This document shows positions 3,209 through 62,826 of a stretch of DNA of 64,000 bases, piece after piece. Made by a program: the position numbers and the translations under genes. Position 1 is the first letter of the stretch. Each line of letters begins with the position of its first letter. Origin of the DNA: an uncultured Candidatus Saccharibacteria bacterium (lineage in GTDB: Bacteria; Patescibacteriota; Doudnabacteria; UBA920); assembly GCA_964490395.1 (NCBI GenBank), contig CAZBAS010000001.1, positions 211,815 to 275,814 on the forward strand, in the 5' to 3' direction. A model generated the notes under the pieces. That model was not told the DNA's origin. It saw only the letters and a list, made by a program, of their open reading frames with translations, and made no database searches.

Positions 3209-3292
3209 AGAAAGATATGAGAAAGCTTTCCATATTGTAGCGGAGTCAGGGGGTTCTGGCTACCTCTAAGGGGGTGGTGTAGAATAGAGTAT

Positions 3293-4681: not shown

Positions 4682-4694
4682 TGTGCGAAGCGCA

Positions 4695-4806
4695 GAATTA
4701 TGAATTAAGAATTATAGAATTAGGAATAACGATTCACACTACCCCTTTCCCTATGGAAAGGGGTAGTTATTTCTTAGTTCATAATTCTATAATTCTTAAT
4801 TCATAC
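4695..4806. repeat. AT-rich palindromic element (GAATTATGAATTAAGAATTATAGAATTAGG ... inverted copy) enclosing a terminator-like hairpin
   Basis: Arms 4695-4731 and 4768-4806 are reverse complements; central hairpin acccctttccctatggaaaggggt; family members at 14108-14210, 14441-14472, 30637-30690, 50921-51030, 51262-51374, 62736-62826. Confidence 0.6.
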
Positions 4807-4822
4807 TTTTTTGCTTGCAAAA

Positions 4823-4852
4823 AGCTGAAGGCTGTGCTATAATATATTTAAC
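4823..4852 (+). promoter_or_regulatory. sigma70-like promoter (TTGCAA-17-TATAAT)
   Basis: ttgcaaaaagctgaaggctgtgctataat upstream of the first FN3 secreted protein gene. Confidence 0.4.
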
Positions 4853-5963: not shown

Positions 5964-6752
5964 GTGAGGGTTATGAAGTACGCTCGTATAATATACATCG
6001 CGGCATTTGCCTGTTTGTGCGTGGCCAGTATGCCAGCGCGCACGGCGCATGCCGCTATTTCTATCTCAAATGTAACAGTGCGGCCTGTAAGTAATACAAG
6101 CGTTACTATTACCTGGGATAGCAGCAAGGCAGGGGACTCCTGGGTGGGGTATACTGCTGCAGGCTCAACAAACCAGCAGTCTAAAGTGACTGTACTTTCG
6201 GTGCAGGCGCATAGCGTAACGCTCACAGACCTGCAGCCCGGCACTGAGTATACCTACGAAGTAAATACCCAAACCCCCCAAGGTGACATAGGCTTTATAG
6301 CCGGGCTCAAATTTACCACAACGGGGCAAACTGGTACTTTGCCTCTTAGTGCCCCGTGCGGTACTCTGGCAAAGTCTGGGTCAGGTATATTTTTTCTTAC
6401 GGGTAAAGATAAAGTAAAAATTCCGTTTACATCCATGGCGGCATTTACGGGTTTGGGGTATGATCTAAAAAATGTAAAAACCATGGATGTGTCCAGCTAT
6501 AAATCTTCCGGCAGCTATTACCTAAGCAGCGCTACTCAAGAACACCCATGGTGCAGCTGGATGAAGTGGAAAGATAATACCATTTATTATAGCCATCCCA
6601 GTGGCGCCATCCCCGTGCCAAGCTGGGACGTGTTTATAAACAATGGCGGTCGCGCAGACCTTATAGTTCCCATGAATGCTGCGGATGATGCTGTGTGGGC
6701 CAAGAATCCAAACCTACCAGTACTGCAGTTGAGTGACAGCCGAATACTATAA
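5964..6752 (+). CDS. secreted protein, paralog of 5014-5952 (FN3-like domain plus same C-terminal domain, no PT linker)
   Basis: Signal peptide; ISNVTVRPVSNTSVTITWDS FN3-like; C-terminal block GKDKVKIPFTSMAAFTGLGYDLKNV...HPW...YYSHPSGAIPVPS aligns to first paralog. Confidence 0.55.
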   Translation: MRVMKYARIIYIAAFACLCVASMPARTAHAAISISNVTVRPVSNTSVTITWDSSKAGDSWVGYTAAGSTNQQSKVTVLSVQAHSVTLTDLQPGTEYTYEVNTQTPQGDIGFIAGLKFTTTGQTGTLPLSAPCGTLAKSGSGIFFLTGKDKVKIPFTSMAAFTGLGYDLKNVKTMDVSSYKSSGSYYLSSATQEHPWCSWMKWKDNTIYYSHPSGAIPVPSWDVFINNGGRADLIVPMNAADDAVWAKNPNLPVLQLSDSRIL

Positions 6753-11680: not shown

Positions 11681-13576
11681 TTACACTTCTATAACCACTG
11701 GCAAGACCATGGGACGTCTGTTTGTCTTTTCAAATAAGTATTCGCCAATTTGGTCTCGAACGGCTTGGCGAAGGTAGGCATAGTTTGGCTCTACTTTTTC
11801 GCCAGATTTGCTTTCGCAAATTTTGCGCACCTCGTGCTTTACTTCCCTGAGGATGTCTTCGTTGCCCTTCATGTAAATAAAACCACGAGAAATTATATCT
11901 GGTTCGCTTATGAGCTTGCTTGTTTTGCGGTCGAGCGAGACTATGACCACAAACATACCGTCTTGAGACATGACTTGGCGGTCGCGAAGCACTACCTCTC
12001 CGACATCGCCAACTCCAAGACCATCTACATAAATGTAGCCAGCTTGCACTTTGGTGTCGAGGCGCTTTGCCTGACCAGCAGAGTTAAACTCAAGAACTGC
12101 ACCATTGTCTAAGGCAAATGTATTGTCTTCGGGTATACCTACGCTTTGGGCAATTTTGTTGTGCGCGACTAACATATGGTGTTCGCCGTGTATCGGAACA
12201 AAATACCGAGGTTTGGTAAGACCAAACATCATTTTTAGTTCTTCTTGTTGGGCGTGGCCAGATGCGTGAATGTCCAGTGTCTTATTGTAAATTACCTCAG
12301 CGCCTTGGCGGGTAAGATTGTCGAGTACTTCTACAACCGACCGTTCGTTTCCAGGAATAGGGGAAGCAGACACAACTACGGTGTCGCCAAGTTTTATGTG
12401 AATAGTTTTGTGCTCACCGCGAGATATGCGTGCAAGCGCAGAGGATTCTTCTCCCTGAGAGCCTGTAGTCAAAACAACTACTTGGTTCTCGGAGAACTTA
12501 GCCATGTCTTCCGATTTGATGAAAATTTTTGGTTGAATATGTAAATAGCCCATAGACAATGCTATTTCTATGGCATTTACCATGGAGCGGCCGGTAACCA
12601 CTATTTTTCGATTGTGCTTTGCTGCAGCATCGCACACCGATTGGATACGTGAAATAAGCTGGGAGAATGTGGCAAAGAGTATTCTGCCTTTTGCTTCTTG
12701 AAATATGTGATCGATTTTTTTAGAAAGCTCTTGTTCTGAAACGCAGTATCCTGGTTTGAGAGCATTGGTAGAGTCGCTCATAAGGAGCAGTACGCCCTCA
12801 CCACCAAACCGAGCAATTTTTTCGAATTCCGTTGGAAGGCCATCCATAGGAGTATGATCAAATTTCCAATCAGTAGCGTACATAACGTTACCAACAGGAG
12901 TTTTGATGCGAAGACCAATACAGTCCGGAATGTTGTGGTTTAAACGGAAAAAATCAACTGTAAAACAGCCGAGTTGTATGCTGGCGTCTTTGTCTATTGC
13001 ATGCAGTCGTGTGCGAGAAGCTAAGTTAAACTCCTCAAGTCGTTTCTTTATAAGACCAGCCGAAAGCGGCATGGTATAAATAGGCGGGTCACCAAGCTTG
13101 GTGAGCACGTAGGGGATTGCCCCTATGTGATCCAGGTGAGCATGGGTTACAAAGAGCCCGCGAATTTTTTTCTTGTTTTCTTCTAGATAATTAATATCGG
13201 GAATAATATAGTCTACTCCCGGCATGGTTTCATCTGGAAATGCCAAGCCCATGTCAACGATAATAATATCGTCGCCATATTCAAAGACCGTACAGTTTAT
13301 GCCCACTTCTTCTACGCCTCCTAAAGGAATAACGCGAAGGGTAGTGCGGCTTTGCGTGTACTGGCTTGTGGCCGGTGCAAGGCTAGGTTTTGTTAAGGTT
13401 GTGCGATCCATGGGCCTGCTCTGAGCAATCCCAGGGCGACTTGGGTTGGTACTGGGTCGGCTTTGTGCTGAACTAGGGGTGTTGCGGTTAAAATTTCTGC
13501 GAGGGCCGTTTTGGCTGCCTGGCGCCCCCATGGGACGTCGTGGCATAGATCCGGACGGAATATTCTTTCTCATCAT
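11681..13576 (-). CDS. rnj: ribonuclease J paralog 2 with ~90 aa low-complexity N-terminal extension
   Basis: VTHAHLDHIGAIPY, same domain order as paralog 1; N-terminus rich in P/S/R/N/Q. Confidence 0.85.
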   Translation of the reverse strand: MMRKNIPSGSMPRRPMGAPGSQNGPRRNFNRNTPSSAQSRPSTNPSRPGIAQSRPMDRTTLTKPSLAPATSQYTQSRTTLRVIPLGGVEEVGINCTVFEYGDDIIIVDMGLAFPDETMPGVDYIIPDINYLEENKKKIRGLFVTHAHLDHIGAIPYVLTKLGDPPIYTMPLSAGLIKKRLEEFNLASRTRLHAIDKDASIQLGCFTVDFFRLNHNIPDCIGLRIKTPVGNVMYATDWKFDHTPMDGLPTEFEKIARFGGEGVLLLMSDSTNALKPGYCVSEQELSKKIDHIFQEAKGRILFATFSQLISRIQSVCDAAAKHNRKIVVTGRSMVNAIEIALSMGYLHIQPKIFIKSEDMAKFSENQVVVLTTGSQGEESSALARISRGEHKTIHIKLGDTVVVSASPIPGNERSVVEVLDNLTRQGAEVIYNKTLDIHASGHAQQEELKMMFGLTKPRYFVPIHGEHHMLVAHNKIAQSVGIPEDNTFALDNGAVLEFNSAGQAKRLDTKVQAGYIYVDGLGVGDVGEVVLRDRQVMSQDGMFVVIVSLDRKTSKLISEPDIISRGFIYMKGNEDILREVKHEVRKICESKSGEKVEPNYAYLRQAVRDQIGEYLFEKTNRRPMVLPVVIEV

Positions 13577-14107
13577 GTGAAGGTAGGGTAGTGGTCGGTT
13601 CTTGTATCTAGTTCTGACTGCTTCGTCAAAAATACATGTTCACGAGTTTCAGCAGACGCAAGAAACCGACGTACCTATTACTTATGGTTCCTACAAATTA
13701 CGAATGATTACAGATATACAAACAGTACTGTAGTAAAGTCTGTATTTCGTTGATGCCTATAAGTAATCGTGTGTATCGTAACGACAGGAAGACTTACCAA
13801 TACAGTATGCGTATATCTGTATGTATCTGTAATCTGTAGGCTCTATTGTTATCGTGCATTACAAACCAAAGGTTTGCTTTTTATGTAGATCTATCTGTGC
13901 GTGGCGTATTCGGCCGCCGCGATAGGTAATGTCCTGTCTCTAAAAAGAGGCCGGGCACAATTAACAAATCAAAAATAAAAAAGACTTTTTTAGAACTGAT
14001 TTGCCAACTGTTAGAAGTTGTTTTGATTTCTCACGAATTCAACGTACAAGCATTATAGCGCACCCCAACTTATTTGTCAAACAAAGATGGCTAAAAATGG
14101 CTTATGT

Positions 14108-19570: not shown

Positions 19571-21808
19571 CTACAGGCTTTTTTTAATTATTTCTGCTTT
19601 GGCTTTACCAACTAACTTTTCTAATTCTTCTAACTCTACTTCCTTTATTCTTGCTACTGAGCCAAACTTTAGTTTGAGGAGTTTTTTAGTTTTCGGGCCT
19701 ATGCCGGGGATGGTGTCGAGCGCAGATTTGGTCGCTTGTTTACTGCGAAGCTGGCGGTGGAAGGTTATACCAAAGCGGTGGGCTTCATCGCGTAGGCGCT
19801 GGAGTATCTGCAAGGCAAGTTCATCGTGACTAAGAATGATTGGTTCAGGGTTGTTAGGTAAAAATATTTCCTCAATGCGTTTTGCGAGGCCAATCATGGG
19901 AATAGCTGCTAGCTTAGAGCTGTTAGCTTCTAGTTCAGAGCCGTTATTGCTTTCTGCTTTTTCTTTCGCAGCTATCACTTCTGCCTGCGCTTCCAGCGCA
20001 GCGCTAAGCTGTCCTTTGCCACCATCTATAACTATTAAGTCCGGCCGCGGCCAGAGGTTTTGCCCCCCTCCTCTTGAGGAGGGGCTAGGGGAGGTCGTAG
20101 AGCTGTTTACTTTTTTGATCCGTTTACTATTTTTATCATCTGCTGTGACCCCCTCGAGCGCCCCCTCAAGAGGGGGAGGGCTCAGGTGCGCGAGTCTGCG
20201 AGTCAGTGTTTCCCGCATCATGGCAAAATCGTCCGGAGTGTCTTTGCTGCGGATTTTGAACTTACGATATTCTGACTTTGCTGGTTTGCCATCTATAAAC
20301 ACGACCATGCTGCCGACCGGGTTTGTTCCTTGGGTATTGGACATGTCGTAGCATTCAATGCGTCTGGGAAGCTCGGGCAGGCCCAGAAGCTTTTGAAGCT
20401 TTAGTAAGGCTTCGTGTAGTTTGTCTATATCTGTGGCGTCGCTTTCGAGCTGCTTGCGCACGCATTCCTCAGCGTTTAATTGTCCCAGTTTTATGAGTTG
20501 CAATAATTTTCCACGGTGGGGAATACTAATGGGGATACTCTTTCCTTTTCTTTGTGCAAGTAATTCAGTAATAAGTGAAAGTTCGGAAAGTGGGAACTGG
20601 GTGAAAATTTTATCAGGCAGGTCTGTGGTATCAGCGTAATACGTTTCCGAGAACGTTTGAATAATACGAGATTCCGTGTCTTGCTCTCCTCCTCTTGAGG
20701 AGGAGTTGGAGGAGGTCATAGAAACTTTTGATGTATTATTATGCTCTGCTACGACCTCACCTAGCCTCTCCTCAAGAGGAGAGGAACCAGACAAGATCGC
20801 TGGTGCGCCATACACAAAGTTTTCTTTGTCGGTGAGCCTACCGTCCCGTACTTTGAAAAGGTTTATGCAATACAGCCCACTTTGAATACCAAGTGAAATA
20901 AGATCGTAATTTACTTTGGTGGGGAACTGAGCTATTTGCCGCTCGTCTAGCAGCTCCAAAGCACGGAGCTGGTCGCGGAGCCTGGCTGCAAGCTCGAACC
21001 GGGTTTGTTCAGATGCTTCTTCCATGGCGCGCTGGACCTCTTGTTTTACTTCACGAGTCTTGCCATTTAAAAAGAGTTGTATGCGCTGCAAGTTTTTTTG
21101 ATACTCTTCAATGCTTATAGCTCCCACGCATATGCCAGGGCACCGATGTAGATGATAATAGAAACAGGGACGATTGCTAATTTCCGTGTTGGCGCAGTAG
21201 GGGAATATGCGGCGCACAAAATCGAGCGTCTCACGAATTTTGCGAACTGAAGAGTATGGCCCAAAGTACTGGTTATTTTTAGTGGGCGTGTGCAGAAGGG
21301 CATCTTCTGCAGCAGCTGCCCTTCTGGTCCCTGCTGCGGTTACGATTTTGCTCTTGACTTTCGACTTTATTATTTTCCGTTGGTGCTTGCCACTTCCCCA
21401 GGCAGCAGAAGGGTTTAAAAAGACTTGTAGCTCTCTATCTTCTTCAATTTTTCGCGCATAGCCTATTTGAGGGATTTGCGTGCCGTAGTCTATAACTATG
21501 AATGCATAGTTTTTGTCGTCTTTGAGTTTAATGTTGTACTTTGGCGAGTGTTTTTTTATGAGTGTGTTTTCCAGGAACAGCGCCTCTAGCTCGGTACGCG
21601 CAACTATGTAGTCTATGTCTCGTGCATCCTCTATTAAAAACGGCAACTGTGGTCGTTTATCCTGCCCAAAATACTGGCTTACGCGTTTGCGCAAGTCTTT
21701 GGCTTTGCCCACATATAAAACTAACCCAGCTGCATCTTTAAATAGATAGCACCCAGGGCTATGGGGAAAATGAGTAATTTGTTGCTTAAGTTCTGGCATT
21801 TGTGCCAT
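19571..21808 (-). CDS. uvrC: excinuclease ABC subunit C (UvrC) carrying two in-frame repeat-derived insertions
   Basis: GIY-YIG N-terminus (CYLFKDAAGLVLYVGKAKDLRKRVSQY), UvrBC, RNase H-like and C-terminal HhH domains; 745 aa versus ~600 typical. Confidence 0.9.
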   Translation of the reverse strand: MAQMPELKQQITHFPHSPGCYLFKDAAGLVLYVGKAKDLRKRVSQYFGQDKRPQLPFLIEDARDIDYIVARTELEALFLENTLIKKHSPKYNIKLKDDKNYAFIVIDYGTQIPQIGYARKIEEDRELQVFLNPSAAWGSGKHQRKIIKSKVKSKIVTAAGTRRAAAAEDALLHTPTKNNQYFGPYSSVRKIRETLDFVRRIFPYCANTEISNRPCFYYHLHRCPGICVGAISIEEYQKNLQRIQLFLNGKTREVKQEVQRAMEEASEQTRFELAARLRDQLRALELLDERQIAQFPTKVNYDLISLGIQSGLYCINLFKVRDGRLTDKENFVYGAPAILSGSSPLEERLGEVVAEHNNTSKVSMTSSNSSSRGGEQDTESRIIQTFSETYYADTTDLPDKIFTQFPLSELSLITELLAQRKGKSIPISIPHRGKLLQLIKLGQLNAEECVRKQLESDATDIDKLHEALLKLQKLLGLPELPRRIECYDMSNTQGTNPVGSMVVFIDGKPAKSEYRKFKIRSKDTPDDFAMMRETLTRRLAHLSPPPLEGALEGVTADDKNSKRIKKVNSSTTSPSPSSRGGGQNLWPRPDLIVIDGGKGQLSAALEAQAEVIAAKEKAESNNGSELEANSSKLAAIPMIGLAKRIEEIFLPNNPEPIILSHDELALQILQRLRDEAHRFGITFHRQLRSKQATKSALDTIPGIGPKTKKLLKLKFGSVARIKEVELEELEKLVGKAKAEIIKKSL
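20063..20180. repeat. ~115 bp palindromic element inserted in frame in uvrC, copy 1
   Basis: ccccctcctcttgaggaggggctaggggaggtcgtagag ... ctgctgtgaccccctcgagcgccccctcaagagggggaggg; encodes PPPLEGALEGV...SPSPSSRGGGQ. Confidence 0.65.
20684..20786. repeat. ~105 bp palindromic element inserted in frame in uvrC, copy 2
   Basis: ctctcctcctcttgaggaggagttggaggaggtcatagaaac ... ctgctacgacctcacctagcctctcctcaagaggagagg; encodes SSPLEERLGEVV...SSRGGEQ; termini are mutual reverse complements. Confidence 0.65.
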
Positions 21809-29481: not shown

Positions 29482-29566
29482 AATTTTTAATTTTTAATTT
29501 CCAATTTTCAAAATAATACAATTGAGAATTCATTAAAAATTATAAAATTAAAAATTGAAAATTATG
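29482..29566. repeat. AT-rich inverted repeat in hrcA-grpE spacer
   Basis: aaatttttaatttttaatttccaattttcaaaat ... aaaaattataaaattaaaaattgaaaatt. Confidence 0.4.
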
Positions 29567-35858: not shown

Positions 35859-36533
35859 ATGACGCAACGAAGCCAGAACAAAGAAATTTTGGATATAGAA
35901 ATCCCTGAGCAGGGGGAGTTTTTGAAGGTGATGAAACGCTTGGCATGGCAGAACAGAGTAACGGGGAATAATTTTTTAATATATAGGTATGTCCGCAAAC
36001 TCATTGCTCACAGTACGAACGTAACTGTGGCAGATGTAGGAACTGGTTTGGGGGATATACCCGTGTATATTGCACGTAAACTAAGCCGCGATGGTATAAC
36101 TGCTTCCATTACGGGCATTGATGCAAACCCAGAAGTCCTGGAATTGGCGCGGCAACAACAGTTGCCACGGGGGGTGAGTTTTAAGCAGGAGAGTGCTGGA
36201 AGTTTTGCCGATAACTACGACATTATTATTGCTTCTCAGATGTTGCACCATATAACACCAACTGAGGCCGGGGAGTTTCTGCGTACGGCATATGCTCACG
36301 CAAAGATAGGGCTGGTTATATCAGATTTAGAACGAAGTTGGTTAGTATATGGGTTTGTTAAGTTGTTTATGTATATGACATGCGCAGACCGTATAAACAG
36401 AAATGATGGGCCGCTGTCGGTACTGCGTGCGTACTCAAATGCCGAGCTTCGAGATATACTCCACCATGCCGGTATAGAACACTACCGGATACATAGCTAT
36501 ATATTTCGAAAAATAGTTATTATCTGGAAATAA
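35859..36533 (+). CDS. class I SAM-dependent methyltransferase
   Basis: VADVGTGLGDIPVYIARKL motif I, IIIASQMLHHI motif; start taken as the Met after the upstream stop. Confidence 0.65.
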   Translation: MTQRSQNKEILDIEIPEQGEFLKVMKRLAWQNRVTGNNFLIYRYVRKLIAHSTNVTVADVGTGLGDIPVYIARKLSRDGITASITGIDANPEVLELARQQQLPRGVSFKQESAGSFADNYDIIIASQMLHHITPTEAGEFLRTAYAHAKIGLVISDLERSWLVYGFVKLFMYMTCADRINRNDGPLSVLRAYSNAELRDILHHAGIEHYRIHSYIFRKIVIIWK

Positions 36534-37395
36534 CTGAAAGAGTTACTACGGCGGCGACTACCACGCAGATGCCTACCATTTGATGGGCACGAACCTTTTC
36601 TCTATTGGCATACATACCGAGTAGCACCGCAAAAGCTATATAGGCTTCGCTTATAGCTGTTGTGAGGCCAATGGGTATAAGGCTCGCGCTTTTTATAAAG
36701 CTGCTCCAGGCTATAACATCCGCTACAGACAGCGCAAGTGCGAGTTTGGGGTTAGTGCGTATGGCTTGTATAACATGCTTCATTTTGCCGGCCACGAGCA
36801 AATATATGCCCGTACACACCGCAAGTCCCATGTAGGAAAACCAATTTGCTAGAACTGGGCTGCCAATTCTGCCGCCATACGCACTCAGAAAGTTAACCCC
36901 GGCCATAAAGAATATGGAAACGAGTGCCATGCGCACGCCTCGCTCCCAGCGAATATTTTTTAATCCCCTGAACGATTGTGCAGCAACAAGAAACATGCCG
37001 CAAACAATGACTGCTATCAATAGCAACTGTGCTGTTCCCAGGGTTTCGTGAATGACTATGTATGAAAGAAAAAGAGTGAGCGGGACTTCGAGGGCGTAGA
37101 GGGGATCTATGGTTGAGAGTTTGCCAATGCGGAGCGCTTCAAAGTCTGCCAATGCAGCAATGAGTGTTACTACGACCGTACCACAGAGCACCCATAAGAG
37201 ACTGCTCGCCCCTGACCAGAGCTGAGTGCTGGATAGGGCAGGGTAGGCAAAGGGGAATAAAACAATAGTGCCAAAAACAGAAAGGCAAAACAGAGCACCC
37301 GCATCTCCCAATTTTTTTGTACTGCGCCCAATAAAAAAGTCATCAAACGCCCACGCCACCAAGGCGACAAACGCCAGTGCAATACCTGTGTTCAT
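36520..37395 (-). CDS. EamA/DMT-superfamily transporter
   Basis: 10 predicted TM helices in two 5-TM halves. Confidence 0.6.
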   Translation of the reverse strand: MNTGIALAFVALVAWAFDDFFIGRSTKKLGDAGALFCLSVFGTIVLFPFAYPALSSTQLWSGASSLLWVLCGTVVVTLIAALADFEALRIGKLSTIDPLYALEVPLTLFLSYIVIHETLGTAQLLLIAVIVCGMFLVAAQSFRGLKNIRWERGVRMALVSIFFMAGVNFLSAYGGRIGSPVLANWFSYMGLAVCTGIYLLVAGKMKHVIQAIRTNPKLALALSVADVIAWSSFIKSASLIPIGLTTAISEAYIAFAVLLGMYANREKVRAHQMVGICVVVAAVVTLSVISR

Positions 37396-43182: not shown

Positions 43183-43352
43183 ACTGGTTGATAATGGATA
43201 TGGAGTGTGCAAAGAGTAAGAGAAATTCCAAATCACACATAACAAGTTCCACATAAATTCCAACCCCCAAACTCATATGAGACTGTATTATCAAAAAATT
43301 GGCAATTGGATATTGGTAATTATGTATGGTATGGTGCTTGATGCTTGGGGCT

Positions 43353-44288
43353 TTATTTTTGAGCGTGCCACCGTGCTGCTATGCCCGTAGACACGAGGCG
43401 GCCATCGGTTTGTTTAAGGCAAAGTTCGCCCGCTTCAATGGAACCACCCTTTTTTAGTTTTAGATTCGATGGTAATACAGGGGAGACAATAGCATCCTCT
43501 ACCATATTTTGCAGTGCCAGAGCAGAGGAGTTGGTGGCGTAGGCGTTTATTAGTAAAAATTGTGCAGATGGTGAAAGAAGTTGCGCTATGTCTTCTAAGA
43601 GCTTTGGCAGGTCATCCGCAAATTTCCATGTTTTGCCATCGGGGGAGTGGCCAAATGCTGGCGGGTCCATGAGGATGCCGTCATACTGAGCGCCGCGCTT
43701 GAGCTCGCGCCTAACAAACTTCACTGCATCGTCTAGGATCCAACGAATAGAATCTTCGGGTAAGTTATTTAGGGCTTGGTTTTCTTTGGCCCACCCTATA
43801 GCAGGCTTGCTGGCATCTACATGCGTAACAAAGCACCCGAGTTTGGCAAGCAAAATACTCGCCCCTCCGGTATACCCAAACAAGTTCAGAATTTTCGGCC
43901 TGTCATTTGTCACTTGTAACTTGCCACTCTGCACTTGTCCGCACAGCCATTCCCAGTTTGCTGCTTGCTCGGCAAAAATACCAGTATGTTTAAAAGCAGA
44001 GAGGCGAGCGTTGAGTTTAACATCCCAATCACCAGTCTTAGTTTCGCCCCTCTGTAAAGGAAGGGGGAAACGAATGGTCCATGGCTGCTCAACAACGGTG
44101 CGAATGTGCCACCGGCCATCGAATATTGCATCCGCTTTCGTCCATTCCTCTTCTGGGAGGTGGCGTTTCCAGATGGCTTGAGGGTCTGGGCGGGCGAGTC
44201 GGTATGTGCCCCAGCGTTCCAGGCGGTACCCGCGGCCAGAGTCAAGGAGCTCGAAGTCAGGAAAGTTTTTTACAGTCTCTAAAAGCAT
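43353..44288 (-). CDS. class I SAM-dependent RNA methyltransferase (RlmI/RlmK-like catalytic domain)
   Basis: ILNLFGYTGGASILLAKLG motif I, GILMDPPAFG motif IV. Confidence 0.65.
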   Translation of the reverse strand: MLLETVKNFPDFELLDSGRGYRLERWGTYRLARPDPQAIWKRHLPEEEWTKADAIFDGRWHIRTVVEQPWTIRFPLPLQRGETKTGDWDVKLNARLSAFKHTGIFAEQAANWEWLCGQVQSGKLQVTNDRPKILNLFGYTGGASILLAKLGCFVTHVDASKPAIGWAKENQALNNLPEDSIRWILDDAVKFVRRELKRGAQYDGILMDPPAFGHSPDGKTWKFADDLPKLLEDIAQLLSPSAQFLLINAYATNSSALALQNMVEDAIVSPVLPSNLKLKKGGSIEAGELCLKQTDGRLVSTGIAARWHAQK

Positions 44289-48448: not shown

Positions 48449-49701
48449 TTGGATGCGGATGGACAACAGTTTTCTTTTATATAAAGCGGGAGTTCTTCTA
48501 TGCTTTGGATTGTAGTGATGGGTAGCTGAACGCCGCCTGACGGCTGGAGGTCGGAAATGGTTGCGCTGTTATTAATAGACGAAGTTTTCGGTATTGCGGC
48601 GGTTGGTTTGGTAAGGGTAATTTTAAGGGCAAGGCCTTTTTTAGTTTCCGCGCTCCAGTCTTGGTCAAAGATAAAATTTCCTAGAGAATAATAGATGGGT
48701 TTGCAATTGGGATTTCGGTTTATCTCTTGTGGTGTAGATTCGTTCGACCTCTCTCCATCTCTCCCCAGGCCTGGGGAGAGGGCCGGAGCCGAGCCGTTAT
48801 ACTCGGAAATCGTACTAGTTCTTGGGCAATATATTTCTTTATTTTGGACCCAGTGCGGGTGAGCGCCTATGACTATATCTGCACCAGCGTCTATGGCTGC
48901 ATGGGCAAAGTCTATTTGATCTTGGTTTGCTTTGGGGGTGTATTCTGTTCCGGCGTGCATAGTCACGACTAGGAAGTCGATTTTAGATTTCAGATTGTAG
49001 ATTGCAGATTTAAGACGCTCGACATCTTCAATTCGAGCTACATAACTATTTATAGTTTTACCGCCATCGTTTACAGAAGAATACGAAGCACCAATGAATC
49101 CTATTTTAATGCCATTCTTTTCTATAATGGCCGGAGTCCATGCTTCGTCGAGTGTTTTGCCAGTACCCATGTGCAGTAGTCCATTATCATTGAGCACTTT
49201 TTCAGTAGTAGTAATGCCGTCTAGTCCTTGGTCAAACGCATGATTGTTTGCAAGGTTCAGTACAGCAAAATTGTATTCTTTCAGGCCAGCGACATTTGTT
49301 TTGGGCGCGTTAAACACAAGTGTGTTTTTTGCAGTAAACGCATCGGTTTTTGAGAAGGGCGACTCAAGATTGGCAAAGTTAAAGTCAGAAGACTTGAGCA
49401 AGCCCACTATATTATGGAAAGGGTACAGAGGGTCTTTTTTTGCTTGTATGGTTGCGGCAACGCTTCGAGAAAGAGAGATATCGCCAAATGCTAAAAAGGT
49501 TACGGTGCTTGGTTGTTGCTGCGTAAGATTGGTTGCTGCTGCGTTCTGGCCTTGCGTATAAAAATCTTGAAATGACTTATCTTGGTTAGCAGCAGAATTG
49601 TGGGTAAGCGGTGAGCCGTGGTTAAGTTGAAAAACACCAAGTATAGTGGCGGCTATGACGACTATTAGTATGGGAGTGAAGACAAGGACTTTACGAGTCA
49701 T
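48445..49701 (-). CDS. CapA family protein (poly-gamma-glutamate/capsule biosynthesis metallophosphatase-like), N-terminal membrane anchor
   Basis: DFNFANLESPF, LANNHAFDQG, VTMHAGTEY, GAHPHWVQ, YSLGNFIFDQ; ORF opens at 49755, likely start MTRKVLVF. Confidence 0.8.
   Translation of the reverse strand: MTRKVLVFTPILIVVIAATILGVFQLNHGSPLTHNSAANQDKSFQDFYTQGQNAAATNLTQQQPSTVTFLAFGDISLSRSVAATIQAKKDPLYPFHNIVGLLKSSDFNFANLESPFSKTDAFTAKNTLVFNAPKTNVAGLKEYNFAVLNLANNHAFDQGLDGITTTEKVLNDNGLLHMGTGKTLDEAWTPAIIEKNGIKIGFIGASYSSVNDGGKTINSYVARIEDVERLKSAIYNLKSKIDFLVVTMHAGTEYTPKANQDQIDFAHAAIDAGADIVIGAHPHWVQNKEIYCPRTSTISEYNGSAPALSPGLGRDGERSNESTPQEINRNPNCKPIYYSLGNFIFDQDWSAETKKGLALKITLTKPTAAIPKTSSINNSATISDLQPSGGVQLPITTIQSIEELPLYIKENCCPSASK
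48748..48790. repeat. CTCTCCCCAGGCCTGGGGAGAGG hairpin repeat, copy 3 (in frame inside CapA gene)
   Basis: gacctctctccatctctccccaggcctggggagagggccggagc encoding ...APALSPGLGRDGERS... Confidence 0.65.
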
Positions 49702-49751
49702 GGCTTGGTAAGAAATGTCTAATAAAAAACAAATAGCCAATTCTGGTCCGG

Positions 49752-49822
49752 GCATTAGTAATTACCCGCCCAAGGCGGGTCCGCCTTGGGCGGAGATATT
49801 GGAAATTAGACATTAGGAATTG
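49752..49822. repeat. GC-hairpin composite repeat, copy 3 (capA-dprA spacer)
   Basis: gcattagtaattaCCCGCCCAAGGCGGGTCCGCCTTGGGCGGAGatattggaaattagacattaggaattg. Confidence 0.7.
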
Positions 49823-49832
49823 TATTCGCGTG

Positions 49833-50918
49833 CTACCGCACACGAATATACTGCTGTGCGCCAACATTTTTAATAACGCCTTTCATTTCCAAAAAACTGA
49901 GTGCAGTAGACACAGCTGCTGTTTCGAGTCCGGTTTGTTTTACTAGCGCATCGCTTGAGAGGGGGCTACTTGTTAGTATACCAAGAAGTAGTGCTTCTGT
50001 GGGGGTGGTGGCCGCTAACTCTGCGTCTATGGTAAGTTCGGGGCTAATGTTTAAGTCTTGCAAAATATCTGCTGCGTCGGTAACAGGCTGTGCTCCCATC
50101 TTGAGTAAATTATTTGGCCCTTGTGACTCATGCGCATAAATTTGCCCAGGCACCGCGTATACACGTCGGTTTTGCTCCAGTGCGTACTGGGCAGTTATGA
50201 GCGAGCCACTTTTAAGACTGCATTCTATAACAAGTGTGCCCATGGAAAGCCCAGAAATGATTCTGTTTCGAGCAATGAAGTTTTGTTTATACCCTGGTGT
50301 TCCTGGCGCGTATTCGCTCATGAGACAGCCACCCGCATTGAGGATCGCGTCCGCAAGGAGTACGTGCTCTTTGGGGTAGAGTGATTTTTCATCCAGTCCC
50401 GAGCCCAGTACTGCAATGGTAGGTAGCCCTTGTTCAATTGCTTGTGTGTGCACCAGCGCATCTACGCCATACGCCATACCAGACACAATCGTAATTCCTG
50501 CACTGACTAAGGGAGAGATGATGTGGGGGACGACACTCCGGCCATAGGTAGTAATTTTGCGCGTGCCAATTGCAGCAAGCATAATTGCGTCTGCGGCTGG
50601 CAGTGCTCCGCGGTAATATAAAATAACCGGAGGGTCGGCTATCTCTGTAAGAAGTTGCGGGTAGCGTCGGTCGCCGAGTGCGAGCACATGTATGCCCAAG
50701 GTGTGCAATGTTTCTTGCTCGTTCGCCGGAGAAATGGGCGTGCGGAAAGCGCTAAACTGCTCGGCAATGTCCAAGCTTATGCCTGCGCTGCATAGTTCAC
50801 CAATGGAAGCATTGAATGCTTGCTCAAATGTTTCAAAAAATTGGCTCAATACGAGCAGTCTTTTCGGGCCAAATTTTGGAAACAGGTTGAGGCAGTGGAG
50901 ATAGATGGTGTCATTCAT
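49833..50918 (-). CDS. dprA: DNA processing protein DprA (Smf)
   Basis: Rossmann-like core IVSGMAYGVDALVHTQAIEQGLPTIAVLGSGLD and C-terminal wH. Confidence 0.85.
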   Translation of the reverse strand: MNDTIYLHCLNLFPKFGPKRLLVLSQFFETFEQAFNASIGELCSAGISLDIAEQFSAFRTPISPANEQETLHTLGIHVLALGDRRYPQLLTEIADPPVILYYRGALPAADAIMLAAIGTRKITTYGRSVVPHIISPLVSAGITIVSGMAYGVDALVHTQAIEQGLPTIAVLGSGLDEKSLYPKEHVLLADAILNAGGCLMSEYAPGTPGYKQNFIARNRIISGLSMGTLVIECSLKSGSLITAQYALEQNRRVYAVPGQIYAHESQGPNNLLKMGAQPVTDAADILQDLNISPELTIDAELAATTPTEALLLGILTSSPLSSDALVKQTGLETAAVSTALSFLEMKGVIKNVGAQQYIRVR

Positions 50919-50920
50919 AT

Positions 50921-51030
50921 GAGTGAATAACGAATCTAGAATTATGAATTAAGAATAATACTTGTTAAGGCTGCAGGCCTTAAAAAGCCAATTTTCATAA
51001 TTCTTTATTCATAATTCTATATTCTTGCTA
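50921..51030. repeat. AT-rich inverted-repeat element (gaatctagaattatgaattaagaataatac ... ttcataattctttattcataattctatattcttg)
   Basis: Same family as 4695-4806; central ggctgcaggcc palindrome. Confidence 0.55.
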
Positions 51031-51036
51031 GCTATT

Positions 51037-51065
51037 GACAAGATTGGCTGAAAGGGGTATAATGT
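51037..51065 (+). promoter_or_regulatory. consensus sigma70 promoter TTGACA-17-TATAAT
   Basis: ttgacaagattggctgaaaggggtataat. Confidence 0.55.
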
Positions 51066-51071
51066 AGAAGT

Positions 51072-51257
51072 AAGAGTTAGATTTGCTTGAGAAAGCTTTG
51101 TTTCTAGCATCCTGCTTGCAAGTGCGAACGTAGAAGTCATCCCTCCTACCTTCTGCTACTAGCATCAAGTAAAGATTTATAGGCGATTGTCTGTGATCTT
51201 TCACTTGCAGGTGGGGTAGTAGAAACAAGCAAAAATCCGCGAAAGCGGATTTTTTTA
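51072..51257 (+). ncRNA. candidate small ncRNA (~186 nt; 6S-like size) bounded by consensus promoter and intrinsic terminator
   Basis: No credible ORF; internal imperfect long stem gtttctagcatcctgcttgcaagtg / cacttgcaggtggggtagtagaaac; terminator atccgcgaaagcggattttttt. Confidence 0.45.
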
Positions 51258-51261
51258 ATGT

Positions 51262-51374
51262 CCAATTCCTAATTTCCAATTTCTAAAGACCAGATATGCG
51301 CTGCGGGTGCAGCGCTGTAATAATACTGAATTGCTATTTGCATTAGACATTAGAAATTAGACATTAGAAATTTT
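51262..51374. repeat. AT-rich tandem/inverted units (ccaattcctaatttccaatttctaaag; cattagacattagaaattagacattagaaatt)
   Basis: CATTAGAAATTAG motif family shared with 49796-49822 and 62736-62826. Confidence 0.5.
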
Positions 51375-51933
51375 AGCCCATGATGAACTGCTCCATGGTC
51401 TTTTTGACCTCTGGGAATATGGTCTCTTGCAACGAACTTAGCTCAGCACTGGAGAATGGGCTCAACACATATTCATCAGTTGGGCTTTCAAGCTTAGACT
51501 TTCTTGATTCAGCACCTATGCGAACGCGATGAAACTGTTGGGTGCCAAGCTGCTCAATAATACTTTTAACACCGTTGTGTCCTGCTGGCCTCGAGTCAAA
51601 GGCAAGTTTCCAAAACCCAAATTTCAAATCTATCTCATCGTGTATTACAAGCAAATCTTTGGTGGGGTCTACTTTATAAAATTTCACAATTTCTGCTACC
51701 GCATCACCAGAGCGATTCATGTACGTTTGTGGCTTTACAAAAAAAGTCTTTACGGGCCCACCCTTGCCATTCTGTGCGGTAAAGTGCACTTCGCACACCT
51801 GTCCCTGGAAGCGTGAGCTGCAAGAAATAGTTTCTATATCTTTTAAACAATAATCAATGGCCATAAACCCGGCATTATGCCTGGTGTGCTCATATTTTTT
51901 TCCTGGATTTCCAAGGCCAACTATTAACTTCAT
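51373..51933 (-). CDS. pth: peptidyl-tRNA hydrolase
   Basis: MKLIVGLGNPGKKYEHTRHNAGF, HNG catalytic His motif. Confidence 0.92.
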   Translation of the reverse strand: MKLIVGLGNPGKKYEHTRHNAGFMAIDYCLKDIETISCSSRFQGQVCEVHFTAQNGKGGPVKTFFVKPQTYMNRSGDAVAEIVKFYKVDPTKDLLVIHDEIDLKFGFWKLAFDSRPAGHNGVKSIIEQLGTQQFHRVRIGAESRKSKLESPTDEYVLSPFSSAELSSLQETIFPEVKKTMEQFIMG

Positions 51934-52021
51934 GTTTTTATTATAGCAGGAGTTTATATTTCAGGTGTGTGGAGTATAGTGGTATACAAGATACAGACTT
52001 AAGTTCCTGAAGGAGGGTGCG

Positions 52022-52276
52022 ATGAATTGCGAAGAAAAATATCTTAAAACTACTATCACTTGTCCGACGTGCAATGGTGCATGCCAGGTAAACCCAACTC
52101 CTTATGATTGGGGGTGGGAGACTTGTTATGACTGTACAGGGGCTGGCAGAGTGCCAAAGCGGAAGACCCGTATGATATGGCTTTGGGTGCTGATCGTAGC
52201 AGTATTGGCCTTGCTACTCTTTTGGGCCAGTAGTATTAAAACCCCGGGAACAATAGTTCTCGGGGTAACTTTTTAA
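52022..52276 (+). CDS. small zinc-ribbon protein with C-terminal TM helix
   Basis: CPTCNG ... CYDCTG then hydrophobic segment. Confidence 0.4.
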   Translation: MNCEEKYLKTTITCPTCNGACQVNPTPYDWGWETCYDCTGAGRVPKRKTRMIWLWVLIVAVLALLLFWASSIKTPGTIVLGVTF

Positions 52277-53667
52277 AGCTTTTTTACTTTGTGCACTTTA
52301 ATGGGGGTCCCCCAAAAGTCTAGGTCTTTGATGATGGCGTTTTCTATAGTTTTGCGGAAAGTTTCTTGTATGGCTGGAGTATGGTTTACGAGGATTTCAA
52401 ATTTTGGTGGGTCAGTGGCTATTTGCTTAAGACCGTAGGCCTTTGGTTCTTTTTGGTCGAGTAAGCGCTTGGGTGGGGCAATCTTCATCCACTTCTTAAA
52501 GAGCGCATCCAATTCTTCCTGGCTTACTTCTTTATGCCGTCGCTGGTAAATAGGTTTTATATTTTTAAGAGCGTCAGTAATGCCTTCTCCTGTAAGTCCT
52601 GATACGAAATACACGGGACACATCCAGAGAAAAGGGAAGTTATGGCTAATGTACGCTTGCAGGCTGCCTACCTCTGACTCGGTAATGGTAGAATCTTTGC
52701 TTTTCTTTCCAGCTCCAGCGGTACCTTTTCTTTTTGAGTCTTTGAGATAGGCATCTATCTTGGTGGCAAGAATAATGCAGCCTTTTTCTTGGTCTATAAT
52801 TTCTGCTGCAATGGCTTGGTCCTGGCTAGTTACCGGTTGGCTCGCATCTATAACAAACAAACAGACGTCGCTTCGGCGAATGGATTTATATGTTTGAAAA
52901 CCAGAGTATATGTCGGGCCGTGCCTGACGATGTTCTTTCTTCTTAAGACCAGCAGTATCTATAAAGGTGTACTCGTCTCCGTCTATGACAACCTTGCTAT
53001 CTATGGCAGTTCTGGTGGTACCGGGCACGTCTGATACTACCACGCGTTCATCATCTACAATTTGATTGAAGATGCTGGATTTGCCCACGTTTGGTTTGCC
53101 CACTATTGCAACATGAATACCGTTGTCAGTAGTCAGTTGTCGGTTGTCAGTATTGGATGCGGCTGGGGGAAGGAGGGAGACAACGTGGTCAAGGAGGTCG
53201 CCAATACCGCGGCCAGTAACGCTGGAGATGGGGAAGACCGCCTTAATACCTAGTTTGTAAAAAGGAGCAGTAATGCTTTCCAAGTCTTTAGGTGAGTCAA
53301 GTTTATTTACTGCGAGTATGACCGGTTTCTTTATTTTACGAAATGCGAGCAGTACAGAACGGTCCATGGTATCCACACCAGCTTTACCATCTACCAACAA
53401 TACAAGCACGTCTGCTTCCTTGGTAGCTATGTCTATCTGTTTTTTGACCGAGCGCTCCAGCTCGTTTTCATCTCCAAAAAATGCGAGCCCTGCGGTGTCG
53501 GTCATGTTAAAGACACTGCCATTCCAAGGTACTTCCGCATATTGTCGGTCGCGAGTAGTACCAGCAACTTCGGAGGTAACAGCGACTTGACCGCCTACTA
53601 TTTTATTAAAGAATGTGGATTTGCCCGCGTTGGGTAGTCCGACTATGGCGACTATTGGTAGAGACAT
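52273..53667 (-). CDS. der: ribosome biogenesis GTPase Der (EngA), tandem GTPase domains + KH-like domain
   Basis: GLPNAGKSTFFN and GKPNVGKSSIFN P-loops, two DTAG motifs; inter-domain linker contains the low-complexity NTDNRQLTTDNG. Confidence 0.92.
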   Translation of the reverse strand: MSLPIVAIVGLPNAGKSTFFNKIVGGQVAVTSEVAGTTRDRQYAEVPWNGSVFNMTDTAGLAFFGDENELERSVKKQIDIATKEADVLVLLVDGKAGVDTMDRSVLLAFRKIKKPVILAVNKLDSPKDLESITAPFYKLGIKAVFPISSVTGRGIGDLLDHVVSLLPPAASNTDNRQLTTDNGIHVAIVGKPNVGKSSIFNQIVDDERVVVSDVPGTTRTAIDSKVVIDGDEYTFIDTAGLKKKEHRQARPDIYSGFQTYKSIRRSDVCLFVIDASQPVTSQDQAIAAEIIDQEKGCIILATKIDAYLKDSKRKGTAGAGKKSKDSTITESEVGSLQAYISHNFPFLWMCPVYFVSGLTGEGITDALKNIKPIYQRRHKEVSQEELDALFKKWMKIAPPKRLLDQKEPKAYGLKQIATDPPKFEILVNHTPAIQETFRKTIENAIIKDLDFWGTPIKVHKVKKL

Positions 53668-53677: not shown

Positions 53678-53752
53678 GTTAAAAGTTTATAAAGTTCTTT
53701 TAGTTTGTAAAGTAGTTCCTGACTTTATGAACTGTATAACTTTATAAACTTG
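53678..53752. repeat. AGTTTATAAAG palindromic intergenic module, copy 1 (der/LCP spacer)
   Basis: aagtttataaagttcttttagtttgtaaagtagttcctgactttatgaactgtataactttataaactt; copies at 57817, 58767, 59290. Confidence 0.65.
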
Positions 53753-57816: not shown

Positions 57817-57893
57817 TAGTTGAAAGTTTATAAAGTTCGTAAAGTTTATAAAGTCGGACTTTAAGAACTTTCTACTTTATGAACTTTACGAAC
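57817..57893. repeat. AGTTTATAAAG palindromic intergenic module, copy 2 (ends 4 nt before HIT start)
   Basis: agttgaaagtttataaagttcgtaaagtttataaagtcggactttaagaactttctactttatgaactttacgaacc. Confidence 0.7.
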
Positions 57894-58348: not shown

Positions 58349-58518
58349 CCCAATGTCATGCTGAAATTATGGCTGGGCTTTGCCACTTTATTGACCAGTT
58401 TCGGCCAATTGTGGTACAGTTTATAAAGGCCGGTAACAATTATGTGCCTAAATATAGTGCTTTTCGGATTGTACTTCCAATTGTTACTATAACTCCGGTC
58501 AATATTTTAGAGAGAGAG

Positions 58519-58761
58519 GTGAGTACTTTGGTAGAAGTTAAACGTAAAGATAACGAAACATTTGAAAGTTTGCTCAGGCGTTTCAACCGTAAAATTCAAC
58601 AAAGCGGTATTTTAGTGCGTGCTCGAAAAACTCGTTTTTTTGAACCAGGTAAGAGCCGCAATTTATTGCGCGTCGCAGCACGACGCCGCTCTGAACTTCG
58701 CGAACTCCGTGAAGAACTAAAGAAAATGGGTAAGCCCGTAAAACGTCCGGGTAGACGCTAA
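58519..58761 (+). CDS. rpsU: 30S ribosomal protein S21
   Basis: VEVKRKDNETFESLLRRFNRKIQQSGILVRARKTRFFEPGKS...RRRSELR; GTG start at 58519 after AGAGAGAG; the long upstream ORF extension is non-coding. Confidence 0.75.
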   Translation: MSTLVEVKRKDNETFESLLRRFNRKIQQSGILVRARKTRFFEPGKSRNLLRVAARRRSELRELREELKKMGKPVKRPGRR

Positions 58762-58766
58762 ACTCT

Positions 58767-58845
58767 TAGTTGAAAGTTTATAAGGTTCATAAAGTTTACA
58801 AAGTCTGACTTTAAGAACTTTTTACTTTATGAACTTTATAAGCTT
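58767..58845. repeat. AGTTTATAAAG palindromic intergenic module, copy 3 (ends 6 nt before GatB/YqeY start)
   Basis: agttgaaagtttataaggttcataaagtttacaaagtctgactttaagaactttttactttatgaactttataagc; ~85% identical to copy 2. Confidence 0.7.
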
Positions 58846-59289: not shown

Positions 59290-59365
59290 TTTATAAAGTC
59301 CATCTAGTTATAAAGTGTATAAAGTCGTGTAACTTTAAAAACTTTATGAACCTTATAAACTTTTA
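59290..59365. repeat. AGTTTATAAAG palindromic intergenic module, copy 4 (ends 7 nt before ftsA start)
   Basis: agtttataaagtccatctagttataaagtgtataaagtcgtgtaactttaaaaactttatgaaccttataaactt. Confidence 0.6.
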
Positions 59366-59372: not shown

Positions 59373-60617
59373 ATGGCTAAAGACCGTTACATTGCTGGAA
59401 TTGATATTGGCACTCACGCCGTTCGTGTGGTTCAGGTGAAGCTTGATCCAGAGGGCGGGGAACCGGCAGTAATTGGTGCGGTGTCCGTACCTTCAGCGGG
59501 GCTCCGTCGTGGAGTCATAGTAGACCTAGACGAGGCTGTCTCGTCTATTTCAACGGTTTTAGAAAAAGTTGAACGCATGACCGCGGTCCCCGTGGATTCT
59601 TGTTTGGTTGCAGTTGGGGGGAGTCATATTGCATCCCTTACGTCAAAGGGAGTAATTGCCGTGTCCAAAGCAGATGGAGAAGTAAGCGAAGCAGACATAG
59701 TCAGGGTTATTGATGCGGCTCAGGCCGTGTCTATACCGCCAAATAGAGAAGTGATACATGTTATTCCTAAGGCCTTTGTCCTGGATGGGCAAGAAGGCAT
59801 AAAGGATCCTCTCGGTATGACAGGTGTGCGCCTTGAGGTAGATACGACCATTGTGCACGGATCCAGTCCGCTCATAAAAAATCTGCATCGTGTGGCGAGC
59901 CAAGCAGGACTTGCAGTGGAGGAACTTGTGGTGGCGCCTTTGGCATCTGCTCAGGCGGTCTTGAGTCGTAAGCAAAAAGAGCTTGGCGTGGTAGTGGTAG
60001 ACATTGGCGCGGGTACAACGAGCGTTGCAGTATACGAAGAGAATACCCTGCTGCATACGGCAATATTGCCCATTGGCGGGCTGCATATAACCAATGATTT
60101 GGCTATAGGACTACGGACAAGCATAGAAACAGCTGAGCGTGTAAAAATTCTCTATGGGCATGCAAACAAAGATGCCGTAGACGCGCACCAGCAAATTGAT
60201 TTAGGAAAAATAGACGAGTCAGAAACCGAACAGATAGCGAGAATGGACATTGTGGACATAATTGAAGCTCGTCTGGCTGAAATATTTGAATACGTAAGCA
60301 AAGAGTTAAAAGCAATAAACAGAGATGGGAAGCTTCCGGCAGGTGTAGTGCTTGTGGGTGGCACCAGTAATCTGCCAGGCATAGTTGAGTACGCCAAGGT
60401 CGCGTTACGACTTCCTGCGAGTTTGGGGAGTTTGCAAGGCCTTAAAACTATTATTGATAAAGTGGAAGACCCTTCATTTGCTGCGGTCTGCGGTCTTATC
60501 ATGTGGTCGCGGGCCTATGCAACAGGTGGCGCGGGCGGAAGTGGTGGAGCAAACAAGCTAATGGAGCACGCAAATGTGCTTAAACTGAAGCGGTGGTTTA
60601 AATCGTTTTTGCCCTAG
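59373..60617 (+). CDS. ftsA: cell division protein FtsA (actin-like ATPase)
   Basis: IAGIDIGTHAVRVV phosphate-1, VVDIGAGTTSVAVY phosphate-2, LVGGTSNLPGI adenosine motif. Confidence 0.9.
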   Translation: MAKDRYIAGIDIGTHAVRVVQVKLDPEGGEPAVIGAVSVPSAGLRRGVIVDLDEAVSSISTVLEKVERMTAVPVDSCLVAVGGSHIASLTSKGVIAVSKADGEVSEADIVRVIDAAQAVSIPPNREVIHVIPKAFVLDGQEGIKDPLGMTGVRLEVDTTIVHGSSPLIKNLHRVASQAGLAVEELVVAPLASAQAVLSRKQKELGVVVVDIGAGTTSVAVYEENTLLHTAILPIGGLHITNDLAIGLRTSIETAERVKILYGHANKDAVDAHQQIDLGKIDESETEQIARMDIVDIIEARLAEIFEYVSKELKAINRDGKLPAGVVLVGGTSNLPGIVEYAKVALRLPASLGSLQGLKTIIDKVEDPSFAAVCGLIMWSRAYATGGAGGSGGANKLMEHANVLKLKRWFKSFLP

Positions 60618-62735: not shown

Positions 62736-62826
62736 CCAATTCCTAATGCCTAATTTCTAATGAAATGCCCAAACGTGGCCCTATTGGACCTTTCATTAGA
62801 AATTAGTAATTGGATATTGGAAATTC
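62736..62826. repeat. AT-rich inverted-repeat element in the 5' region of the RNR gene
   Basis: ccaattcctaatgcctaatttctaatgaaatg ... ctttcattagaaattagtaattggatattggaaattcc. Confidence 0.55.

Follow-up and report, generated by a model that had tools for sequence, protein, structure and literature searches.

What kind of gene occupies the short interval between dprA and pth in a genome of the Candidatus Doudnabacteria, and what might its product do? In the 64-kb stretch of DNA analysed here (the window), the interval had been read in a first-pass annotation as a promoter-to-terminator unit for a non-coding small RNA of about 186 nt, either 6S-like or of another kind. On its two sides are dprA (49833-50918) and pth (51373-51933), both on the minus strand, the unit being divergent from the former and convergent with the latter; der and a gene of the PGA_cap family are found further out. 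It opens with a sigma-70-type promoter on the plus strand that matches the consensus in 12 of 12 positions, with the -35 hexamer TTGACA at 51035-51040, a 17-nt spacer and the -10 hexamer TATAAT at 51058-51063. The perfect promoter had been recognised correctly from the start, but its placement at 51037-51065 had not, as the actual site (51035-51063) lies 2 nt to the left. A promoter scan found it to be the sole 12/12 TTGACA-17-TATAAT site within 49500-53000 and one of just three such sites in the whole window. In addition, its spacer contains, just upstream of the -10, the motif AAAGGnG, which is conserved family-wide and was not found in the other strong promoters of the window. The start site would fall at about 51069-51071, approximately 7 nt past the -10, giving a predicted transcript of about 187 nt (51070-51256). 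The putative 5′ leader (51070-51096, plus strand) differs from one relative to the next: between the -10 and the first helix, P1, the homologues have 14 to 69 nt, and the sequence of this stretch is not conserved.

Perfect promoters are found also elsewhere in the window. One of them, with its -35 at 14080 on the minus strand, is followed by about 470 nt free of ORFs before an RNase J-like gene (11681-13576); the region in between (13577-14080, minus strand) has no match in Rfam and may serve as a long 5′ leader with a regulatory role or harbour another non-coding RNA. A second one, at 16800 on the plus strand, stands about 150 nt ahead of an ORF at 16984 led by a Shine-Dalgarno (SD) sequence.

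The unit ends at a canonical intrinsic terminator (51230-51257, plus strand), as originally described: an A-run is followed by a hairpin at 51235-51250, in which ATCCGC (51235-51240) and GCGGAT (51245-51250) enclose GAAA, and by a T-run at 51250-51256. A terminator scan calls the same element on the minus strand as well; since five A's precede the stem, it can work both ways, and it is probably bidirectional and common to the convergent pth. Most of the distinct homologues carry a 12/12 TTGACA-17-TATAAT promoter upstream of the RNA, and most have a GC hairpin followed by a T-run at the same place, with stem sequences that are unrelated. In other words, the comparison indicates that promoter and terminator are conserved by function, the terminator not in sequence. 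As for coding potential, no plus-strand ORF initiated by ATG exists between promoter and terminator, and the only longer ORF at the locus is an antisense one of 83 aa with a TTG start (51028-51279), whose frame stays open in just 7 of the 36 distinct homologues; none of the frames is open throughout the family. The earlier view that the interval holds no plausible ORF is borne out by these counts, and so is the more general view of a non-coding promoter-to-terminator unit, as the homologues in 48 related contigs keep promoter, structure and terminator, with no conserved ORF. Judged by this conservation, the locus is an independent structured non-coding RNA gene of about 187 nt, with its own promoter and its own intrinsic terminator.

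The AT-rich repeats reported on both flanks of the unit are present, as inverted repeats at 50932-50959/50997-51024 and at 51252-51286/51342-51372. The two arrays differ from each other in sequence, similar heptamer arrays occur in many other intergenic regions, and the flanking arrays are not part of the RNA. Hence, a small-protein gene, a hairpin due to chance or a piece of some repeat or mobile element is hardly a credible reading of the locus: the mechanical antisense ORF and the repeats on the two flanks would speak for it, whereas the absence of a family-wide open frame, the substitutions in the stems (compensatory and not codon-like, as described below), the dissimilarity of the two arrays and their commonness elsewhere, the single copy in the window, the synteny in all relatives and the lack of members in viral contigs speak against it.

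The repeats of the window deserve a description in their own right. Paired inverted AT-rich arrays with a 7-nt period, often as 14-nt double units, are found in many intergenic regions, with a different heptamer in each region and the ability to form long AT-rich hairpins; besides the two pairs just mentioned they lie at 4694-4727/4767-4802, 14120-14144/14184-14209, 14440-14465/14534-14570, 29482-29564, 43296-43353 and 62795-62825. Heptamers of the AATTTCC/AATTTCA type also occur past the RNA terminator in L082, L089, L097, L098 and L134, loci of the family. An assignment of the flanking repeats to TIGR-Tas arrays was discarded on inspection, the flanks being two-unit 14-nt repeats in inverted pairs with no long arrays. 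A second type of repeat, with a 9-nt period (AACTTTATA / AAAGTTTAT), is found at 53722-53747, 57823-57854, 58773-58839 and 59331-59363, upstream of der and several other genes, and der has an upstream string, TTATAAACTTTTAACTT, in common with the ORF at 59373-60617; these repeats and the string could be a shared operator or promoter module. Finally, GC-rich palindromes built as CCCCTCCT-loop-AGGAGGGG, with (CT)AGGGGAGG after them, recur at 20066-20096 of the window and in relatives (L004, ~147-190; L088, ~125-170; L102, ~591-640; L103, ~3106-3250, in tandem copies).

The distribution of the RNA was followed through its neighbours. The best relatives of the Pth protein among species-representative genomes are Candidatus Doudnabacteria MAGs, with 48-83% protein identity, and searches with nhmmer and blastn found the RNA in all six of the loci selected in this way (L001-L006), downstream of pth and on the opposite strand. 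The nucleotide identity of the RNA core in these loci is 75-92%, even where the Pth protein is only 48% identical. A metagenome scan with a three-block pattern, which included part of the apical loop of helix P2, returned 40 contigs; a covariance model built from seven sequences (the window and L001-L006) matches 34 of them full-length with about 86-150 bits, and never exceeds 41 bits on the reverse strand of the metagenome loci. The other six pattern matches (L083, L085, L086, L094, L110 and L120) are unrelated and due to chance. Because the scan pattern held part of the loop, an independent sample was drawn through DprA homologues (L131-L138), and the RNA is present between pth and dprA in all eight of these contigs, with 103-150 bits. 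Conversely, it was absent from 74 pth loci of other bacteria and other phyla of the Candidate Phyla Radiation (CPR), and a loop-independent pattern gave 10 chance matches and no family member in viral contigs. Taken at face value, these searches place the RNA in every relative examined from Candidatus Doudnabacteria (14/14 chosen through neighbouring proteins) and, as far as could be seen, make it specific to this CPR lineage.

The transcript is predicted to be highly structured. Specifically, the minimum free energy of 51070-51257 (188 nt) is -69.9 kcal/mol, compared with -44.7 +/- 3.9 in 200 dinucleotide shuffles (z = -6.43), none of which folds as well. The RNA core comprises 138 nt, and the RNAalifold consensus contains 49 pairs, all features lying on the plus strand: a closing stem P1 of 26 bp with one unpaired position per strand (51097-51123 with 51203-51229), which a repeat search also returned as long inverted repeat arms at 51098-51124/51202-51228; a junction J1/2 (GCGAAC, 51124-51129), whose G51124-C51125 can pair with G51162-C51163 in a 2-bp junction helix; a hairpin P2 (51130-51156), with a 7-bp stem (51130-51136 with 51150-51156) and a 13-nt loop (51137-51149); a junction J2/3 (UACUAGCAUCAA, 51157-51168), mostly unpaired in the consensus and with A71, G72 and C73 nearly invariant; and a hairpin P3 (51169-51202) of 14 bp with a 4-nt loop of variable sequence, which abuts the P1 3′ strand. 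In the consensus, no nucleotide is left unpaired between the 3′ strands of P3 and P1, and therefore P1 and P3 can stack as a rod from which P2 branches off.

Comparative folding of the relatives at the dprA-pth locus, the check that the first-pass annotation had called for, gave a structure supported by covariation. In P1, 17 of 26 pairs have changed on both sides and 94.6% of the cells are paired; the 2-bp junction helix, with nearly invariant G/C, is paired in 95.9% of the cells; the P2 stem is paired in 100%, with compensatory changes in six of its seven pairs, a result that is the same in the pattern-independent set; P3 shows compensatory changes in 7 of 14 pairs, with 96.5% of the cells paired. 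Over the whole core, the 37 distinct sequences have 96.0% of the cells paired and compensatory changes in 31 of 49 pairs, against 39-47% paired in slid controls, and the 14 distinct pattern-independent sequences have 96.1% and 23 of 49, against 40-45%; in neither case did any of 500 shuffles reach the observed values, which are to be read with the bias toward the structure that comes from both alignments having been fitted to the model. An alifold based on a MAFFT alignment of seven sequences already contains 16 compensatory pairs. The covariation argues firmly that the core is a three-way junction of P1, P2 and P3. An alternative in which the 3′ strand of P1 (AGGUGGGGU) pairs with the loop of P2 or the CAAGU of J2/3 was also considered and rejected, because in the alignment the variable positions of that strand covary with the P1 5′ strand and not with either of these partners; the output of an all-against-all column scan for pseudoknot or tertiary pairs was dominated by noise.

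This architecture bears directly on the suggestion of a 6S-like RNA, which had leaned on size and on a long imperfect stem with an internal bubble. The stem is there, but the two-stranded bubble is not: what had been taken for it is the three-way junction, with a covarying hairpin on the 5′ side. That the transcript is the 6S RNA of this lineage, or a functional analogue binding RNA polymerase as a mimic of an open promoter, appears highly improbable, even if the inferred length of about 187 nt, the rod given by coaxial P1 and P3 and the strong promoter are all in line with it; that no 6S gene lies in the 64-kb window is formally in its favour and uninformative for a genome of about 1 Mb. Against it, the 3′ strand runs from P3 into P1 without a single unpaired nucleotide, the 5′ side folds into a conserved hairpin, and a downstream duplex arm of the 6S type is lacking. 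Moreover, the Rfam comparison that had been proposed for the locus, with 6S, SRP and other models, assigns it to no family: there is no match at the gathering threshold, and even with the cutoff relaxed (E <= 10 for 50850-51450, E <= 5 for ten homologues) RF00013 and the other 6S models as well as SRP, tmRNA, RNase P and Y RNA gave none. Membership of the 6S family was accordingly rejected, for want of an RF00013-type score and of a large central bubble single-stranded on both strands, and SRP RNA (4.5S), tmRNA and RNase P RNA were set aside for lack of an Rfam match; ARAGORN finds only three tRNAs in the window, and the loop of P3 is variable and not a conserved GNRA tetraloop. The weak Rfam matches that did appear (rnk leader, FtrA, Leu leader, miRNAs) were dismissed as inconsistent and driven by the terminator. 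Of the first suggestion, it is the fallback to another sRNA that stands.

A different possibility is that the element acts in cis. The genes around it (dprA, pth, der and topA) serve ordinary housekeeping functions and keep a conserved order, and almost all members have the RNA at the same place between dprA and pth. In addition, the -35 of the RNA promoter (TTGACAA) reads TTGTCAA on the opposite strand, where together with TAGAAT it forms a predicted minus-strand promoter (51041->51014) with 10/12 matches, facing dprA back-to-back and with a -35 region that would be common to both. Still, a role as leader, as riboswitch or in the control of dprA or pth by antisense or interference is very unlikely. 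The fixed position, the overlap of the -35 region with the predicted promoter facing dprA and a terminator that can serve both convergent genes would fit with it; on the other hand, no same-strand gene precedes the terminator, transcription runs away from dprA and stops short of pth, and promoter interference would leave the invariant apical loop unexplained. Furthermore, in three loci (L107, L108 and L119) topA takes the place of dprA and an unrelated ORF separates the RNA, itself intact, from pth. A riboswitch or 5′ leader was also rejected on its own account, as the unit has no same-strand gene downstream and its terminator is followed by the convergent pth.

The feature that any functional reading has to explain is the loop of P2. 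Its C-rich decamer, AUCCCUCCUA (51139-51148, plus strand), occurs once in the window and is the same, letter for letter, in all of the 15 members retrieved independently of that motif, namely the window, L001-L006 and L131-L138; only these 15 sequences bear on the invariance, because the metagenome members were retrieved by a pattern holding part of the loop. Around the unchanged loop the P2 stem varies at every position, and the neighbouring AGUAAAG motif is changed to AGCAAAG in five of the eight members selected through DprA. This pattern shows an absolute sequence constraint on the loop. The loop is anti-SD-like, holding the anti-SD core CCUCC, and equals the canonical 16S tail AUCACCUCCU, taken here as the reference, minus one A; the likeness is short and was spotted by eye. 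A canonical tail in the clade is assumed because the rare long SDs of relatives (AAGGAGGTGAT) and GAGAGGTGA upstream of rpsU imply it.

The use of SD sequences in these genomes is sparse. An SD-like motif precedes only 4 of the 48 long ORFs of the window, and distinct starts led by GGAGG number just 12 among 675 candidate starts in the family loci. Conversely, 8 of 33 genes (24%) have a -10 hexamer 4-12 nt ahead of the ATG, compared with 3.7% of control ATGs; examples are pth itself, with its start at 51933 (CTGCTATAATAAAAAC followed by ATG), the genes at 43353-44288 and 36520-37395 on the minus strand and that starting at 37462 on the plus strand. This suggests widespread leaderless or very short-leader mRNAs in the host genome. 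The few SD-led genes have strong SDs, as for example AAGGAGGGTGCG before the ATG at 52011-52024 of the window or AAGGAGGTGAT in relatives, and the exceptions comprise rpsU, small Cys-rich ORFs such as 52022-52276 near pth, and small membrane ORFs. The ORF at 52022-52276 (plus strand), divergent from pth, encodes 84 aa and is Cys-rich and zinc-ribbon-like, with a hydrophobic C-terminal segment; its SD (GAAGGAGGGTGCG before ATG) is among the strongest in the window and has 7 nt complementary to the RNA loop. Similar small Cys-rich SD-led ORFs are present in L001-L003. The rpsU gene (bS21; 58528-58647, plus strand) has in its upstream region (~58505-58527) an SD, G(A/G)GGTGA, about 7 nt before the start, which is kept in six genomes (the window, L097, L102, L106, L109 and L119), though most genes have none. 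This is reminiscent of the SD-dependent autoregulation of rpsU in SD-poor Bacteroidia.

With these elements in hand, the reading tentatively preferred here, with less than even confidence, is that of a lineage-specific sRNA acting through its C-rich loop on G-rich, SD-like RNA. Sequences of this kind are the known targets of C-rich-loop sRNAs of Gram-positive bacteria (Firmicutes), which act on G-rich ribosome-binding sites. According to this model, the RNA would be made constitutively and abundantly, as could be expected from its perfect consensus promoter; P1 and P3 would form a rigid rod displaying the P2 loop; and the loop, as the working part, would find its partners in other RNAs, at G-rich SD-like sequences (AGGAGGG or, with one bulge, AGGAGG-U-GAU), and by base-pairing with them would block the access of ribosomes or alter the stability of the target. 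Since SDs are rare and many genes are apparently leaderless, the pool of targets would be the small minority of SD-led mRNAs. A search for such targets found no enrichment of loop complements in the 64-kb window (44 matches versus 40 expected), and in the family loci, which amount to about 325 kb, no complementary site was seen to recur at a conserved gene. In rpsU, the only conserved SD-led gene found, the SD pairs better with the canonical anti-SD than with the RNA loop. It is because of the missing enriched or conserved target and of the better fit of rpsU to the canonical anti-SD that the pairing mechanism is put forward only tentatively. A further point against pairing is that the 49-bp architecture is kept over a clade in which DprA and Pth are only about 40-60% identical; conservation of architecture to such a depth is more usual in housekeeping RNAs that bind proteins than in sRNAs that act by base-pairing.

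The RNA might then be a protein-binding or scaffold housekeeping RNA, with the invariant loop serving as a protein recognition site and not as a pairing seed. By itself this explanation is somewhat unlikely, and yet it is nearly as likely as that of a loop-pairing sRNA. It would account for a three-way junction that is deeply conserved as a whole and covaries in every helix, for a perfect consensus promoter as in stable RNAs, for the presence in 14/14 relatives chosen via neighbouring proteins, and for the failure of any pairing target to turn up in the window or the family loci. In one version, the RNA may mimic the 3′ tail of 16S rRNA (AUCACCUCCU versus the loop AUC-CCUCCU) and bind or titrate a factor that recognises that tail; Era recognises GAUCACCUCC through its KH domain, and in SD-poor Bacteroidia the anti-SD is covered by bS21. 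That the loop is one A short of the canonical tail, as inferred from the SDs of the clade, fits with this version, whereas the shortness of the likeness, which was noted by eye, weakens it, and no gene for a partner protein is conserved next to the RNA.

A bolder extension, which we regard as unlikely, sees in this gene a housekeeping free anti-Shine-Dalgarno RNA of CPR bacteria, whose translation starts mostly without SDs; the RNA would be abundant, and its rigidly held loop would closely copy the 3′ tail of 16S rRNA (CCCUCCU). If this were true, the RNA would compete with ribosomes for the rare SD-led mRNAs, that is, those for bS21, small Cys-rich and membrane proteins and possibly foreign genes; alternatively, it would titrate a factor binding the 16S tail, such as Era or bS21.

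Whichever function is considered, the question of how far the family extends is touched by a single contig outside the lineage. In L053, from the candidate division CPR2 bacterium GW2011_GWC2_39_10, a promoter-hairpin-terminator unit convergent with pth lies at 4600-4830 on the minus strand, in the gene order der, pth, RNA candidate, two inserted genes and dprA, with position and orientation as in Doudnabacteria. Its promoter reads TTGACA-17-TAAAAT; a long stem, whose 5′ arm contains AAUCCUGCU as in P1 of the window RNA, ends in an apical loop of 9 nt (CCACCCUCC), a terminator is present, and the fold has z = -6.7. When the covariance model was run with filters off on the pth loci of other CPR phyla, L053 alone gave a score, of only 20 bits and nearly equal on both strands, as for a generic hairpin. 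This unit may be a miniature relative of the Doudnabacteria RNA, a lead and not a finding, with L053 as the single example; the matches obtained when CPR2 relatives were sought through Pth homologues were Firmicutes-like or lay where the contig ended. If the relation were true, the RNA family would be wider than Doudnabacteria. In the same contig, a c-di-GMP-II riboswitch (6465-6550, minus strand; 56.7 bits, above the gathering score) precedes an ORF of 319 aa, which is inserted between the RNA candidate and dprA.

The RNA locus is more conserved than the adjoining proteins and therefore marks a function important enough for retention in every Doudnabacteria genome sampled. To our knowledge, the CPR or Patescibacteria represent a large share of bacterial diversity, with tiny genomes, few recognisable regulators and non-coding RNAs that are essentially uncharted. 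In this context, an invariant anti-SD-like loop in an SD-poor genome offers a testable link to the control of translation initiation in a lineage with unusual ribosomes, and the covariance model and alignment would allow the annotation of the RNA family in metagenomes.

How does this RNA compare, then, with the systems already known? A literature search found no relevant paper on it, and the comparative data indicate that it is a genuine new family of structured sRNA, and not 6S. A retron msr-msd RNA was rejected, as no reverse transcriptase is present in any gene table of the loci, where the neighbours are dprA or topA, pth, der and PGA_cap. With 6S RNA (RF00013) it has in common the length (about 187 nt, against about 180-200 nt), the 5′ and 3′ parts joined in a long closing stem, the rod-like shape and the strong constitutive expression expected for both; the two differ in the interior, which in the Doudnabacteria RNA is a three-way junction with a branch carrying an invariant loop and with no downstream duplex arm of the 6S type. 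Bacterial Y RNA (YrlA) and other rod-plus-module RNP RNAs likewise have their 5′ and 3′ ends in a long stem that carries a structured module, and are of a lineage-restricted housekeeping type. The difference here is that the Doudnabacteria RNA has no Rfam match, no tRNA-like module according to ARAGORN and Rfam and no Ro/Rsr gene in the loci viewed. The 3′ tail of 16S rRNA, with its anti-SD AUCACCUCCUUA, is resembled by the loop AUC-CCUCCUA, which has both AUC and CCUCCU and could pair with the same SDs bar one bulged base; in contrast to the tail, the RNA presents this sequence in a closed 13-nt hairpin loop and not in a free 3′ end beside helix 45, and one A is missing. The likeness to RsaE/RoxS and the other C-rich-loop sRNAs of Firmicutes is one of design: the gene stands alone, with a promoter and a Rho-independent terminator to itself, a hairpin loop exposes a conserved and unpaired C-rich motif, for which G-rich ribosome-binding sites could be the partners, and the conservation is unusually deep for an sRNA. 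In the locus and ten homologues, the Rfam comparison reveals no similarity to them in sequence or covariance model. Moreover, the Doudnabacteria RNA has one C-rich loop and not several UCCC motifs, it is built on a much larger core, a 49-bp three-way junction closed by a 26-bp stem, and it belongs to a host very poor in SDs.
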